In this document: piece after piece, positions 4,358 to 46,739 of the stretch
How positions within the stretch are numbered: position 1 is the stretch's first letter
Layout of the letters: the number at the start of each line of letters is the position of its first letter
Origin: Anaerostipes sp.
Lineage (GTDB): Bacteria > Bacillota > Clostridia > Lachnospirales > Lachnospiraceae
Assembly: GCA_028697725.1 (NCBI GenBank)
Contig: JAQVEG010000001.1
Coordinates: forward strand, 167,516 to 231,515
Reading direction: 5' to 3'
DNA: 64,000 bases
The notes under the pieces: generated by a model
Seen by the model: only the letters and a program-made list of their open reading frames with translations
What the model was told of the DNA's origin: nothing
Database searches by the model: none
Position numbers and translations under genes: made by a program

Positions 4358-4429
4358 GGCCCCATGGTCAAGCGGTTAAGACGCGACCCTCTCAAGGTCG
4401 AATCACGAGTTCAATTCTCGTTGGGGTCA
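4358..4429 (+). tRNA. tRNA-Glu (anticodon CTC)
   Basis: Acceptor stem GGCCCCA/TGGGGTC, D-loop TGGTCAAGCGGTTAAGAC, anticodon arm CGACC-CTCTCAA-GGTCG, T-arm ACGAG-TTCAATT-CTCGT; CCA not encoded. Confidence 0.95.
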
Positions 4430-4531: not shown

Positions 4532-5722
4532 CTAAAGTGCTGTTTCATCTGAAAAAATGATATCTGCAAAGTCTGATATTGTCTTTTTCTCTTCCGAACC
4601 TCGAATATGAGCATAGTTGTGTAGGAATGTTTTTACGTCATTTCCCATGATGCTGGAAATGATTTTATCTTGTACACCACGAGAGTAGTTGTTTGTTCCA
4701 AATGTATGTCTGCAATTGTATAAAGGGATTTGAGGTATTCTATCTTTTGGCTTAACTGATTGGCTGTATCTTTCAATCGTTCTACGAAACATCTTTGAAT
4801 AATGGTTAGGGGTTACTGCACCTCCTTCTTCTGTAACAAAAAGAGTATCGGTTGTAAAAAAATCAGGGTATTGAAGCTGTATTTTCTTTTTCCATGTAAG
4901 CGAAGATTTAATTAAGTCGTATAGTGCATCAGGCAGGTAGATAGATCTATGTGACGCTGGTGTTTTTAAGTCAGTAAAATTACCTTGTTTGTCAATTCCT
5001 CTATTAAGCTCTAGTGTATGCAGTTCTTTGTTCAAATCTGTTTCAGCCAGTCCGCATGTTTCTCCTGGTCTTGTCCCCACTAATAAAGAAGTTGCAAACA
5101 TTGCATAATAATGTGATTCTTTTACGATGGGAGAGTTTAAAAAGGCTTGGATTTGCTCGTTAGTCCATGTTATTTTCTTCTTGTATGGCACGTGATTGCG
5201 TTTTATTCCAAGCATGGGGTTCTTGTTAGGCTCAATTACTTTAAGTTCATCTGACGCAAAATTAAAGATGTCACAGAGGATATTAATCATTTTGTTAATG
5301 GTCTCTGGGGAATATGGCTTTCCGTTTTTATTTGTTGTTTCCTGCATTAAGGTTTTAAATTTCAAAATATGAGAGGATTCTATTTTTCTAATGCCAACAT
5401 TCTCAAATACTTCTTTTATGTATCTGTTATAGTAATACTCGTATGTTACTAGGGTGCTGTTTCGATAAAATCCTTTTGAATAAGCGAGCCACTGGTCAGC
5501 AACTTCTCCAAAAAGCATTCCACGTTCTTTTGCGATTTTCTCTTTTTCTTTTCCATTTTTTAATTCCTCCATGATTTCAATTTCATCCTTGGATGCATTT
5601 ATGCGTTTTTCTTGTAATGGTCCAACGATACGTTTTTTTGTTCTGCCATCATAGACAGAAGCGTAGTACCTAGTAGTAATGCTGCCATCTTTTTTTCTGT
5701 AACTTTTCTTTTGTACACTCAT
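4532..5722 (-). CDS. Tyrosine recombinase / phage integrase
   Basis: N-terminal arm-binding-like region, SAM-like middle, catalytic GTRPGETCGL, KT..S.R.I, YNCRHTF, IMGN, YAH. Confidence 0.93.
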   Translation of the reverse strand: MSVQKKSYRKKDGSITTRYYASVYDGRTKKRIVGPLQEKRINASKDEIEIMEELKNGKEKEKIAKERGMLFGEVADQWLAYSKGFYRNSTLVTYEYYYNRYIKEVFENVGIRKIESSHILKFKTLMQETTNKNGKPYSPETINKMINILCDIFNFASDELKVIEPNKNPMLGIKRNHVPYKKKITWTNEQIQAFLNSPIVKESHYYAMFATSLLVGTRPGETCGLAETDLNKELHTLELNRGIDKQGNFTDLKTPASHRSIYLPDALYDLIKSSLTWKKKIQLQYPDFFTTDTLFVTEEGGAVTPNHYSKMFRRTIERYSQSVKPKDRIPQIPLYNCRHTFGTNNYSRGVQDKIISSIMGNDVKTFLHNYAHIRGSEEKKTISDFADIIFSDETAL

Positions 5723-5853
5723 AGAACATCATCCTTTCTAAAGAAGGGTATAAAAAATACACCCTACAATTATTGTTGGATGTATGATATAATTCTAATT
5801 GTTCAGAAGAGAATTATATTAACATCCGTGTTAATAGGTTTCTTTTGCGAAAG

Positions 5854-5881
5854 CAGTCACTTTGCCGAGTGGCTGTTTTTT
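5854..5881 (+). repeat. Cassette repeat copy A (hairpin part only)
   Basis: CAGTCAC-TTTGCCGA-GTGGCTG-TTTTTT; same hairpin as copies B-D. Confidence 0.8.
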
Positions 5882-5901
5882 AAATAGATTAAGTAAAAAA
5901 G

Positions 5902-5934
5902 TTGCATTTTTTTTTACTTAATGTATAATATAAT
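5902..5934 (+). promoter_or_regulatory. Sigma-A-type promoter facing the 3' end of the DUF3644 gene
   Basis: TTGCAT-16 bp-TATAAT, with a second overlapping TATAAT at 5929; no ORF follows on this strand. Confidence 0.65.
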
Positions 5935-5936
5935 TA

Positions 5937-6030
5937 TCAAAGATAACTTGTGAAGGAATAACACTGGGTCCCAGAATGGGGTAAGTACATTATGTACTGA
6001 GCATTCCTATGTGCCTGGGGTTATCTTTTT
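5937..6030 (+). ncRNA. Candidate structured small RNA (possible pseudoknot)
   Basis: Own promoter; closing stem AAAGATAAC/GTTATCTTT plus T-run; inner AGGAAT/ATTCCT stem; AGTACA-TTA-TGTACT hairpin; CCCAG can pair with CTGGG outside the inner stem. Confidence 0.6.
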
Positions 6031-6994
6031 ATTTGCTTCGTTTTAAACTCTCGACAAATTTGTCTGGAGTTTTTTCGATTTCTGATACAATAAATTCAAT
6101 AAATTGTTGTGAATATGTATATTGTTGCTGATTACCAATAATATGTTGATATGCATATTTGGGGTCGTTTTTTATATCGTAGAAATCAATAATAAGGTTT
6201 AATACATAACTATTAAAACCAGAGGAATATCCCAGCTTTATATGCTTTCTTTTTAATCTTTCTTGAATCGCAGTGACAACACTACTATGCGAATATTTAT
6301 GAGTATCTGATGGGTCTTTTACTTCTTTTAGAGTGGTAACCTTTGTATCTGAATCCTTAGAAATACACACTGCAAAATCAGCCTTGTCTCTCTTTTTTGT
6401 TATATATAGATTTTGTCTTATGTTAATTGCAAATTTATCAGAACGTATTTCATCACTTAAAACATCTATTTCATTAGATTGCTTAATGAACTTTTCGGCA
6501 ATTTCAGGACTGTATTTTAATTTGATTTCCTCGTTTGAGAGAGGTTCATATCTCGCTGATATTGTTAGAAAATTTTGTGCAATATATTTAGTAATATCTC
6601 TATTGTGAAATCTTTGAATTTCATTTACAAAGTTAAGAACGCAAGCTTGAAAAAGCGGCGCGTATTTCACCTCATAATCTTCAGTTATATAATGAGTACT
6701 AATATTTCTTAATTCTAATATTTTTTCAAGATTTAATCTGATCCTTGTGTTTTTATCAGAATATATTTTTTTGATTGAGTTTTCTACGCTTAAGGTCCTG
6801 TCAGGTTTATCAGAATAGTAGATGCTTTTTCCACGATTTATAAGCTCGGCTTTTAGCATGAGTTCCCAAGCGTTTACTATAAAGAAAGAAAATCCTTCAA
6901 TTCTGTATTTAATTGTAGGTTTATTGTATATCTCTAATCCTAAAATAAAAGCCTCTATACTTTTGTCAACTAATCTTTCCTTGATATTTTCCAA
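6029..6994 (-). CDS. DUF3644-like protein, predicted HEPN-superfamily RNase
   Basis: Likely TTG start at 6994 after an AAGGCGGG RBS. N-terminus (KSIEAFILGLEIYNKP..YR.EGFSFFIVNAWELMLKA) is typical of DUF3644; RNISTH = RxxxxH motif at 6709-6692. Confidence 0.75.
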   Translation of the reverse strand: MENIKERLVDKSIEAFILGLEIYNKPTIKYRIEGFSFFIVNAWELMLKAELINRGKSIYYSDKPDRTLSVENSIKKIYSDKNTRIRLNLEKILELRNISTHYITEDYEVKYAPLFQACVLNFVNEIQRFHNRDITKYIAQNFLTISARYEPLSNEEIKLKYSPEIAEKFIKQSNEIDVLSDEIRSDKFAINIRQNLYITKKRDKADFAVCISKDSDTKVTTLKEVKDPSDTHKYSHSSVVTAIQERLKRKHIKLGYSSGFNSYVLNLIIDFYDIKNDPKYAYQHIIGNQQQYTYSQQFIEFIVSEIEKTPDKFVESLKRSK

Positions 6995-7111
6995 GTTTAT
7001 CCCGCCTTTCTTTATGTTTAGTATTAATTTCTTCTTAAGTAAAAAATACAATATTCTATTAATGTAACTATATGCGGTAGTAGTAGTAGGGGTGTGAATC
7101 TAATTTTTCCT

Positions 7112-7175
7112 AAAAAAATACTCGCCATGTTACGCATATTACCCGAAAATAACAGAGGCTTGGCGAGTTCCGTTA
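7112..7175 (-). ncRNA. Candidate leader or antitoxin RNA resembling the abiF RNA motif
   Basis: Minus-strand promoter TTGATA-17-TATCCT (7209-7181); 8-bp stem ACTCGCCA/TGGCGAGT enclosing GCCTCT...ATGCGT; T7 tract follows. Confidence 0.5.
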
Positions 7176-7222
7176 CATATAGGATATGATATGCATTTTA
7201 AAATATCAAGATATTTTTGGTA

Positions 7223-8059
7223 TTATAGCTTTATAAGTGCATCGATTAATTCTTTTTCTAAATTCTTTTGTTGTGTTGCAGTTAATTGAGAAGAAGTTCT
7301 TACTATGATAGTTCCTATAACTTTATGCGAACCAGGATTCATCATACCGGTTGAATCAAAAGCAGCAAGGTACTTATTTCTGGTGTCTGCATTCTCTTTT
7401 GTTTTGTAGACTTCTATACAGCCACCGCCATCAGTTCCATTGCCTATAGAATCTTTCCCAGAAAGAAAAGAATGATCAACCTTAGGACTTGAAAAATAAA
7501 TTGCTGCAGTATAACCTCCAGTTTTGTTTAAACTACCATTTGGGTCATTTTTTTCTGTTACCGCTTTAACGTTATTAATGGATTTTATCTTTTTAAGTGA
7601 TGCTAAAACAAACTTTTGTGATGGATTAGTTACTTGCTCCAATTGCTGTATACTTTTGTCTAATTCCGTTGTGCTTTTTTGCAATTCAGATATCTGTTTA
7701 GAATAATCCACACCTTTTTCTAGAATTAAAGTTTCTTTTTTTACAACACTAATTTTTTTGGGGGCATCTGGTACATTGCGTCTAACTTTTTTTGCATTTT
7801 TAATTGAATCCTTTGCATTAGTTATTGTCGATTTTTCGAGTGGCTCTTTCTTTGAATTGATGAGTTTTTGTGCTTTGTTTATGTATCCGTTTAGCTCAAC
7901 ATTTTTTTTGTCAATTTTTTCAGATGCAGCGTTGTATTTGCTAACGGCAATATCATATGGTCTTTTATATGTAAAATACCATACTCCAACAGCTATAATC
8001 AAAACAACAGCAATTCCGATAATAGTAAAGTTTTTCTTTGATGTTCCAGTAGTTTTCAT
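7223..8059 (-). CDS. Membrane-anchored extracellular phage cargo protein (coiled coil plus conserved C-terminal domain)
   Basis: N-terminal TM helix (IIGIAVVLIIAVGVWYF), Lys-rich helical stalk, DPNGSLNK.GGY...GGGCIEVY domain; GGGAGG RBS. Confidence 0.7.
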   Translation of the reverse strand: MKTTGTSKKNFTIIGIAVVLIIAVGVWYFTYKRPYDIAVSKYNAASEKIDKKNVELNGYINKAQKLINSKKEPLEKSTITNAKDSIKNAKKVRRNVPDAPKKISVVKKETLILEKGVDYSKQISELQKSTTELDKSIQQLEQVTNPSQKFVLASLKKIKSINNVKAVTEKNDPNGSLNKTGGYTAAIYFSSPKVDHSFLSGKDSIGNGTDGGGCIEVYKTKENADTRNKYLAAFDSTGMMNPGSHKVIGTIIVRTSSQLTATQQKNLEKELIDALIKL

Positions 8060-8086
8060 AGTTTCCTCCCTTATTGTATATGTAAA

Positions 8087-8159
8087 TTTATTGTAACCTT
8101 AATTTAATCAGTTCTTTATCATATTCAATCAATAGTCACTTTGCAGAGTGTCTGTTTTT
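8087..8159. repeat. Cassette repeat copy B (73 bp)
   Basis: TTTATTGTAACCTTAATTTAATCAGTTCTTTATCATATTCAATCAATAGTCACTTTGCAGAGTGTCTGTTTTT; 2 mismatches to copy D. Confidence 0.92.
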
Positions 8160-8183
8160 TTTTGGATTTTAGTTTAAGAATAA

Positions 8184-9473: not shown

Positions 9474-9523
9474 GTTTTTTATCATATTCAATTAATAGTC
9501 ACTTTGCAGAGTGACTGTTTTTT
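9474..9523. repeat. Cassette repeat copy C (about 50 bp core, diverged extension to 9454)
   Basis: GTTTTTTATCATATTCAATTAATAGTCACTTTGCAGAGTGACTGTTTTTT; upstream ATTATAACC..AATT.AA aligns with ATTGTAACC..AATT.AA of copies B and D. Confidence 0.88.
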
Positions 9524-10259: not shown

Positions 10260-10332
10260 TTTATTGTAACCTTAATTTAATCAGTTTTTTATCATATTCA
10301 ATCAATAGTCACTTTGCAGAGTGGCTGTTTTT
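10260..10332. repeat. Cassette repeat copy D (73 bp)
   Basis: Near-identical to 8087-8159; lies between cI and the K+ channel gene. Confidence 0.92.
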
Positions 10333-10339
10333 AGGGTTT

Positions 10340-10732
10340 TTAATCCACCCCGCTCCTTTTCATGCGTATCAGCATGTCGTGTACCAGTTTTAAGTCCTCG
10401 GGTGATACGTCTTTGCCTGCATCAAATAGAAGTCGTAATTCTTTATTCTCAAATATCTCTTGTGCAATTTTTTTTGTTTCTTTGTTTAAGTAATATGTTG
10501 ATTGTTCTTGTTCTCCTTTATCTTCCATTAAGTCAGACCTATTTATAGAAAAATAATCACATATCATATCAATTTTTTTCATTCGTGGAGTTTTTTCTCC
10601 CCTGCACCAATTAGAAACTGTTGTTTGTGTGACACCTAAATAATCTGCCAAATCCGACTGATTTTTTCCATGAGTTTTTAGCAGCTCAGTAATATTTTTT
10701 GCAATTATTTTATTCAGTTCTTTTTCAGACAT
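10340..10732 (-). CDS. XRE-family HTH phage repressor (cI-like)
   Basis: HTH QSDLADYLGVTQTTVSNWCRGEKTP; sits at the far end of an int-linked module. Confidence 0.85.
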   Translation of the reverse strand: MSEKELNKIIAKNITELLKTHGKNQSDLADYLGVTQTTVSNWCRGEKTPRMKKIDMICDYFSINRSDLMEDKGEQEQSTYYLNKETKKIAQEIFENKELRLLFDAGKDVSPEDLKLVHDMLIRMKRSGVD

Positions 10733-41051: not shown

Positions 41052-41102
41052 AAGTTGATTTCAAATAAGCAAACAAGTATAATGATAAACGGTAATTATT
41101 AA

Positions 41103-41186
41103 AAAGGGGAGTCCACCAAGTGGGCTGAGAGTAAGCGAGAAGCTTTGACCCGAAACCTGAATTGGATCATGCCAACGTAGGGATAT
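41103..41186 (+). ncRNA. TPP riboswitch (upstream of thiD-cytX)
   Basis: GGGGAG...GCTGAGAG...GACCCG-AACCTGA-TTGGATCATGCCAACGTAGGGA; terminator at about 41200-41237. Confidence 0.92.
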
Positions 41187-41311
41187 ATACGAAGTGTAAG
41201 CTGCGCAGATATCTTTACGATGTCTGCACTTTTTTTAAGTGTCAATTCAGGCAGCGGTTTTTGGGGGCACCACCTAAATCGCTTAACAAAATAGTGCAGG
41301 AGGATTTTATA

Positions 41312-46347: not shown

Positions 46348-46460
46348 TCCTACCTCATTTCGTGCAGTTTCATCGTTATCCCTTAGAACAAAGTATAACA
46401 TAATTTTATAAGGTGTTGTCAAAAAACACTCTATATGTTAAAATAATTTTCGTAAAAGAA

Positions 46461-46543
46461 ACTGGGGAGCTTGGAAAACCGGCTGAGAGGAAGTTTAAAC
46501 TTCGACCCTTATACCTGATGCGGATAATGCCGACGTAGGAAGA
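46461..46543 (+). ncRNA. TPP riboswitch (upstream of thiSFGH)
   Basis: CTGGGGAG...GCTGAGAGG...GACCCTT-ACCTGATGCGGATAATGCCGACGTAGGAAG; terminator at about 46570-46607. Confidence 0.92.
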
Positions 46544-46739
46544 ATTCTAGAAAGTTTATAGAATATTTCAAAAGAAGCATTTTCAAAAGAGAATGTTTCT
46601 TTTTTTAGGAATTCTTTGAAATAACATCAGGAGCAATTACATAAAGTAGAAGTTGAGAGTGCATGAAAGCAGCATGAAGGGGGACACCACCACGGGTGTC
46701 ACTTTTCTTGTTGCTTTTTTTTTGAAAAGAGGTGAAATT

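Follow-up and report, generated by a model that had tools for sequence, protein, structure and literature searches.

A putative abiF-class leader RNA precedes a DUF3644 HEPN-REase cassette in Anaerostipes

The abiF small RNA normally switches off AbiF suicide toxins. Known members of this RNA class (Rfam family RF03085) are RCd22, encoded by the phi027 prophage of C. difficile (PMC12373285), and AbiFr, the RNA of PbAbiF (PDB 8VZ6, reviewed in PMC12737573). We analyzed a 64,000-nucleotide stretch of an Anaerostipes sp. genome, referred to as the window and numbered from its first letter, in which a candidate RNA of this class lies on the minus strand ahead of a different HEPN gene. Like RCd22 and AbiFr, it displays its own sigma-A-type promoter, GCCUCU and AUGCG..A.C within internal loops and a terminator behind the motif, and, within a prophage, it immediately precedes a HEPN gene; a short RNA accompanied by read-through is likewise the output expected for the window leader. 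Unlike RCd22, which is present in two copies, it occurs as a single copy. It further deviates from abiF RNAs by 11 additional nt in the loop, where an extra helix forms, by one inner A-G opposition, by a motif stem that itself serves as the terminator, and by the identity and distance of the next gene, a DUF3644-REase gene at 113 nt instead of an Abi_2 gene at 20-35 nt.

Two further types of system are comparable to this locus. Type III toxin-antitoxin systems (ToxIN, AbiF/AbiFr) share the order of an RNA gene and a terminator preceding a ribonuclease toxin gene, where the balance between termination and read-through would determine how much antitoxin is made per toxin. The constant RNA of the DUF3644 family is, however, a convergent sRNA located 3' of the gene, and the consistent co-occurrence of RNA and toxin that characterizes type III systems was not found, the leader being present in 3 of ~55 lineages. 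Promoterless cassettes, such as those of integrons or hairpin-bounded cargo modules, resemble the locus with respect to sharp borders and the lack of a conserved promoter for the coding sequence: the DUF3644-REase gene and its sRNA form a unit found behind foreign promoters or in operons, and hairpin linkers bound the cargo. Unlike integron cassettes, the unit is associated with neither an attC site nor an integron integrase, and its conserved 3' element is an sRNA gene with a promoter rather than a recombination site.

The preliminary description of this DNA had pointed at a TTGATA-17-TATCCT promoter, a pair of stem arms, GCCTCT and ATGCG elements and a U-tract, all of which lie on the minus strand where it had placed them (Table 1). 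The -10 hexamer TATCCT is followed by the five nucleotides ATATG and by a UAAC box, as is that of a canonical leader (L223, TACAAT-ATATG-TAACAG). The 5' box GUAACGGA is the counterpart of a conserved UAACAGAA at the 5' ends of abiF leaders, a segment lying outside the Rfam model. Considered one by one, these features carry little weight. With 9 of 12 matching positions, the leader promoter belongs to a group of sites of which a promoter scan found 20 in the region, compared with 13.7 expected. The 8-bp outer stem contains five G-C pairs and is followed by one A and seven U residues, so the hairpin looks like an intrinsic terminator as far as its letters tell; a simple terminator scan missed it because the enclosed region of 32 nt exceeds the limit of 8 used in that scan. 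The 113-nt spacer towards the HEPN gene is not homologous to any other locus, and the scan, at its threshold, detected no promoter-like site there.

Table 1 Features of the locus in window coordinates, in order of position
Feature	Position	Strand	Remarks
Tyrosine integrase	4532-5722	-	Adjoins tRNA gene 4358-4429 (+)
Hairpin linker AGTCACTTTGCnGAGTGnCTGTTTTT	5855-5881 (+), 8134-8160, 9497-9523, 10307-10333		Four or five copies
Convergent sRNA gene	5902-6034	+	-35 TTGCAT 5902-5907, -10 TATAAT 5924-5929, body 5940-6026, U-tract 6027-6034
DUF3644 (EC042_2821-type HEPN, motif RNISTH) plus REase-like protein, 322 aa, TTG start	6029-6997	-	Pfam, PADLOC, AlphaFold
Spacer between leader and HEPN gene, 113 nt	6998-7110	-	Cassette homology starts at ~7013
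Whole abiF-class leader RNA (putative)	7111-7176	-	R1 model, 33.4 bits
U7 tract	7112-7118	-	One A after the stem; same layout in L280 and L259
Outer stem, 3' arm TGGCGAGT (RNA UGGCGAGU)	7120-7127	-	Sequence and fold
ATGCGTAACA	7128-7137	-	Invariant AUGCG 7133-7137, then UAACA; A35 and C37 kept
Extra loop helix GUUAU / GUAAU (DNA of the stretch GTTATTTTCGGGTAAT)	7138-7153	-	Absent from Rfam consensus; alignment A7
AGCCTCT	7154-7160	-	Bulged A and GCCUCU 7154-7159, invariant in abiF
Outer stem, 5' arm ACTCGCCA (RNA ACUCGCCA)	7161-7168	-	Sequence, fold and R1 alignment
5' box GTAACGGA (= GUAACGGA)	7169-7176	-	Alignment A1 and R1 alignment
-10 hexamer TATCCT	7181-7186	-	4/6 match; 17-nt spacer behind TTGATA
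-35 hexamer TTGATA	7204-7209	-	Same offset from the RNA as in true abiF leaders
Upstream membrane-anchored protein, 278 aa, family not assigned	7223-8059	-	
cI-like repressor	10340-10732	-	

Membership in the abiF class was assessed with covariance models. At curated Rfam thresholds, only one tRNA and two TPP riboswitches were identified in the window, the latter being ordinary elements at 41095-41200 and 46453-46558 (+). No abiF RNA was found at the gathering threshold in the window or in 19 homologous loci, nor did a search of L003, one of the leader-bearing relatives discussed below, yield an abiF match in E-value mode. In the comparison with the Rfam abiF model that had been proposed in the preliminary description, a permissive search aligned the whole of RF03085 to 7167-7120, with a score of 18.9 bits against the gathering cut-off of 37. 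This match is the best in the whole 2.9-Mb genome, with an E-value of 1.46, and matches as strong occur in ~3% of 400 genomes of the same class, several of them inside genes; the Rfam score by itself therefore proves nothing. Its reduction is mainly caused by the 18-nt loop, which the model expects to be 7 nt long, and by an A-G opposition at the first inner pair.

True abiF leaders were collected from the 400 genomes, and they extend beyond the 37-nt Rfam motif: a TATAAT -10 element is followed after ~5-6 nt by UAACAGAAC, the hairpin (CCCGAC-A-CGC-CUCU....AU-GCG-gACCAy-GUCGGGU) and a U-rich tail, and in most of them Abi_2 starts 20-35 nt past the hairpin, or 30-60 nt from the GCCUCU core. A covariance model, R1, was built from an alignment (A1) of 21 distinct true leaders from the same class, excluding those of the window and of L003. 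R1 detects the window leader with 33.4 bits (E 3.2e-8); searched against the whole genome, the leader is the sole significant match (E 1.5e-6). The abiF likeness claimed earlier is thus genuine by a class-specific model, though the Rfam cut-off is not reached. The window leader retains all 14 positions that are invariant in A1 (G7, GCCUCU, AUGCG, A35 and C37), together with 10 of 14 that are nearly so. The 5' box reads GUAACGGAAC compared with GUAACAGAAC in true leaders, its distance from the -10 element is also kept, and part of the R1 score stems from this box, which is unmodelled in Rfam. Regarding architecture, the leader possesses an outer stem of 8 bp (6-7 bp in the class), the bulged A and a 6-nt 3' loop, UAACAU, while two of three inner-stem pairs are formed, the first being A-G. 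Judged from its sequence, the element at 7111-7209 is a genuine, divergent abiF-class leader with its own predicted sigma-70 promoter. It is not positioned directly 5' of an Abi_2 or AbiD/F gene, the next gene encoding DUF3644 and an EC042_2821 REase domain.

A fortuitous resemblance, with the hairpin being nothing but the terminator of the gene at 7223-8059, would agree with an Rfam score below cut-off at about one match expected per genome, with the ~3% of genomes that match as strongly, many of them in genes, and with a fold that is not more stable than that of shuffled sequences (z = -0.96). Yet the R1 E-value of 3e-8, the promoter at canonical distance and the existence of near-identical leaders elsewhere, one of them before an Abi_2 gene, render this hardly credible. 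The hairpin is the only terminator of the 7223-8059 transcript and very probably does terminate it as well, which is compatible with both readings offered in the preliminary description, namely that the RNA serves a further toxin family, or that it outlasted a cassette swap.

Loose pattern scans of viral contigs yielded mostly chance matches inside genes and proved useful only for L109, L259, L280, L271, L330, L337 and L340. Among these are the two closest leaders. L280 is an orphan with 84% identity and an identical outer stem; L259, with 75% identity, lies before an Abi_2 gene that starts 66 nt after the GCCUCU core and has its RBS directly behind the U-tract. Both contain a loop helix of the same length and register as in the window, with covarying pairs. 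Since A17, A36, the loop helix and the strong U-tract are all common to the window, L280 and L259, the departures of the window leader from the canonical form are subfamily traits rather than signs of decay. A model of these three leaders (R2) identified further loop-helix leaders across the phylum, and similar loop inserts are present in L390, L392, L396 and L402. Most leaders of this kind precede intact Abi_2 genes (L392, L396, L402 and also L259), which argues for the loop helix as an abiF subfamily trait reflecting neither decay nor a particular downstream gene. Specificity of the loop helix for DUF3644-linked leaders was considered and rejected, as the same insert precedes Abi_2 in L259, L392, L396 and L402. 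In the window, L280 and L259, a strong U-tract directly after the outer stem indicates that the hairpin of the motif also functions as an intrinsic terminator.

The gene behind the leader had been described as a non-AbiF, DUF3644-type HEPN gene, and Pfam analysis agrees, adding a nuclease-like domain (DUF3644, 5e-55; EC042_2821 REase-like domain, 1.5e-32). RNISTH conforms to the Rx4H motif of HEPN proteins (RNxxxH), and the EC042_2821 HEPN family has been described before (Anantharaman et al., PMC3710099). The protein also matches the PADLOC candidate defence system PDC-S19 with 484 bits; a literature search on PDC-S19 found no paper. Alignment of DUF3644-REase and Abi_2 profiles via hhalign covered merely 31 columns around RNxxxH with a probability of 0.7%, and Pfam identified no Abi_2 match in the protein. 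An AlphaFold model (pLDDT 76) retrieved minimal HEPN toxins (HepT, sacsin HEPN domains) as top Foldseek matches, albeit weakly; PbAbiF (8VZ6) was absent from the best 50, and a PDB sequence search with the HEPN-REase profile gave no match. A disguised AbiF is hence ruled out on the level of profile and fold, with only a generic HEPN helix in common.

A total of 112 loci with DUF3644-REase homologues (45-93% identity) from genomes, viral contigs and metagenomes were compared. Their upstream regions are mutually unrelated, and several of the genes lie directly behind another gene in an operon. DNA homology extends from ~-16 nt relative to the start codon, covering the RBS, to ~+110 past the stop codon. 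The unit thus has sharp borders and lacks a conserved promoter for its coding sequence.

The homologous stretch past the stop codon contains a convergent sRNA gene, whose U-tract overlaps the HEPN stop codon. A sigma-70 promoter, an end-paired RNA and a U-tract recur on the strand opposite the gene, in a layout shared by every locus apart from the exception named below. The predicted sRNA comprises ~95 nt, with a body of ~87 nt and paired ends (AGAUAAC...GUUAUCU, 5940-6026). Conservation of this region exceeds that of the protein; L213 displays 49% protein identity and 88% DNA identity. RNAalifold analysis of 40 distinct copies revealed five helices, in which 98.1% of cells are paired, a share that drops to 32-49% once the pairing partners are shifted. 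Compensatory change is seen in eleven pairs, a number reached by none of 500 shuffles, and many invariant G-U pairs are compatible only with a reading on the plus strand, that is, against the gene. No Rfam family matches the sRNA. A dedicated HMM identified it in 98 of 99 assessable loci, in antisense orientation throughout, and the sRNA rather than an abiF-type leader is therefore the constant RNA companion of the family. It is probably the real RNA partner of the HEPN-REase protein. The single assessable locus devoid of the sRNA, L212, is the most distant homologue (45% identity) and has a plain terminator after the stop codon.

Leaders of the abiF type are distributed sporadically among these loci. 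R1 detected them in 7 of 112 loci, corresponding to 3 of ~55 lineages: the window, L003/L206/L109 and L149/L151/L152/L153. Each lineage exhibits a promoter, a hairpin with loop helix and a U-tract, followed by 35-113 nt to the cassette border. They do not form one clade in the protein tree, at least 2-3 changes being required, and their sister loci have entirely different upstream DNA. The convergent sRNA is intact in all three. MAFFT misaligned the three DUF3644-linked leaders (A2), and an R1-fitted alignment (A3) was likewise unusable. The three leaders are 57-65% identical to each other, whereas each is nearer to leaders without a DUF3644 gene (window-L280, 84%; window-L259, 75%; L003-L390, 72%; L149-L271, 69%), which argues for three separate captures and against inheritance. 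A leader ancestral to the DUF3644-REase cassette that was lost repeatedly has, accordingly, only a slim chance of being correct. The tree does permit one gain followed by losses, with the window and L003 falling into a weakly supported group of 17, but the three leaders each resemble Abi_2-linked or orphan leaders more closely than they resemble one another, the spacers lack homology, and cassette homology ends at ~-16 in all loci.

The leader of L003 differs from the invariant core at 3 of 14 positions (GCCUCU to GUCUCU, AUGCG to AUGCA, ACC to AAA), while promoter, stems and U-tract are retained. Such drift would fit selection for a promoter and terminator, not for AbiF-type protein recognition. 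A second hairpin of L003, at 5681-5733 (+), is located 2.2 kb past the 3' end of the DUF3644-REase gene. Its 5' flank resembles that of abiF leaders (AUAACUGAUCCCGGAC...GUCCGGGAUUUUUGUUUU) and R1 scores it at 21 bits, yet GCCUCU is missing; the hairpin may represent either a terminator of the usual kind or the remnant of a leader.

A rival reading is a new partnership, in which the abiF-type RNA binds and neutralises or otherwise regulates the DUF3644 HEPN protein, and the gene is placed under two RNAs, leader and sRNA. The threefold pairing would then reflect functional compatibility beyond a shared slot, and abiF RNAs would not be tied to Abi_2. The same pairing in three lineages, the full set of 14 invariant positions in the window leader, the fact that AbiF and the DUF3644 protein are both HEPN RNases with RNxxxH, and a sole leader change between L152 and L149 that preserves a base pair (C-G to U-G) are in line with such a partnership. 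It nevertheless appears unlikely: ~52 of ~55 lineages lack the leader and sister loci have unrelated upstream DNA, the sRNA is intact in all three leader-bearing lineages, HEPN-REase and AbiF show no specific kinship in sequence or fold, L003 has lost 3 of 14 invariant nucleotides, and the three leaders are mutually unrelated. Moreover, complementarity between leader and sRNA is no better than between shuffled sequences.

Separation of abiF leaders from their toxin genes is not confined to DUF3644 loci. Among ~39 leaders from two unbiased genome samples, ~19 precede an intact Abi_2 gene, ~8 a decayed one (truncated or frameshifted) and ~12 another gene or none; toxin genes are thus commonly lost or replaced while the leader persists. 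Successors other than Abi_2 include a RhuM-like gene (L246) and an integrase, the latter in L224 and, on a viral contig, in L271. In L390, L391, L401 and L238/L245, the leader is followed by no more than the initial Abi_2 codons (MSEIKPFKT..., with frameshifts), pointing at toxin decay with the RNA retained. We also noted that abiF-type hairpins without a toxin gene recur at the edges of integrated elements: L224 and L271 have the leader directly before an integrase, and a leader-like hairpin abuts the 3' end of a tRNA in L340/L299.

Orphan hairpins raise the question of a decoy, an AbiF-antidote RNA kept without a toxin that would disarm the AbiF proteins of hosts or rival elements. Their frequency in phage and prophage DNA (L280, L231, L337) and the own promoter and terminator of the window leader, which would make it a complete small-RNA gene, are consistent with this role. 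The host genome, on the other hand, contains three Abi_2 genes on other contigs (L382 on G000:C88, L383 on C68 and L384 on C1), none of which is associated with an R1-type RNA, and no second R1-type RNA is present in the genome. The -10 element of the window leader is weak, and a function in expression accounts better for the leader lying directly ahead of a toxin-like gene devoid of a promoter, so that we regard a decoy as quite improbable. L382 and L383 are preceded by other structured, terminator-ended leaders, that of L382 being GAACUCGGG-UGACCUUCGGGCC-CCGGGUCUUUUUUU, and further undescribed leader classes may exist for Abi_2 subfamilies.

The surroundings of the leader are those of a mobile element. 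The integrase delimits one end of the cargo region of a prophage or island, and hairpin linkers separate the cargo genes between it and the cI-like repressor. Versions of 73 nt are located at 8087, 9450 and 10260. Read along the minus strand, the repressor is followed by linker-separated cargo, the 278-aa gene, the leader, the HEPN gene with its sRNA, the integrase and the tRNA; the unit bounded by linkers at 5881-8087 comprises sRNA, HEPN gene, leader and 278-aa gene. When the island DNA was searched against 200 genomes of the same family, no relative carrying a different gene in this slot was recovered.

With a probability of roughly 60%, we favor a genuine abiF-class leader that was kept after a cassette swap and now acts as promoter, attenuator and terminator. 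The arrangement of L259 would represent the native one, with the leader directly before an Abi_2 toxin gene, the short terminated RNA as antitoxin and the read-through product as toxin mRNA. The Abi_2 gene would then have been replaced, in a slot near the integrase of the prophage cargo region, by a mobile promoterless cassette composed of the DUF3644 HEPN-REase gene (PDC-S19) and its convergent ~95-nt sRNA. RNA polymerase is predicted to start near 7177 and to stop mostly at the U7 tract (7118-7112), resulting in a ~65-nt RNA, while a fraction would continue across the 113-nt spacer and transcribe the HEPN-REase gene, which lacks a promoter; the same hairpin would end the transcript of the 278-aa gene. 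Control of the HEPN protein most likely rests on the convergent sRNA.

Between the two readings of the preliminary description, the cassette swap is favored, since the leader is absent from ~52 of ~55 lineages, the sRNA is constant, the leaders are unrelated to each other and displaced leaders are common. A role of the RNA with a new toxin family received no positive support, a generic HEPN helix being all that the protein has in common with AbiF. As the 200 genomes revealed no locus that combines the island flanks with Abi_2 in place of the cassette, we infer the swap rather than observe it. Several findings count against it: three captures are far above what random insertion would produce, retention of all invariant nucleotides equally fits ongoing selection for protein binding, and the -10 element TATCCT is weak. 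The three captures being too many for random insertion, something seems to favor the pairing of leader and cassette. This could be a shared prophage slot together with recombination at hairpin-terminators, the usefulness of a strong promoter and terminator platform for a toxic gene or, with a low probability, true compatibility of the RNA with a second HEPN family.

These results present a known RNA class in a new variant and context, and depict abiF leaders as portable expression platforms. The Rfam threshold misses a sizeable set of abiF leaders with an extra loop helix, and roughly half of the sampled leaders have had their toxin gene lost or exchanged. The unit of promoter, hairpin and terminator appears to have been co-opted three separate times to express at least one further toxin-like defence cassette. 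AbiF and its RNA are regarded as the root of Cas13 and its guide RNA (PMC12165695, PMC12737573), and an uncoupling of RNA and HEPN protein therefore bears on the origin of Cas13. With one HEPN gene positioned between two RNAs, the locus offers a natural test case for whether an AbiF antidote RNA would act on a foreign HEPN protein.
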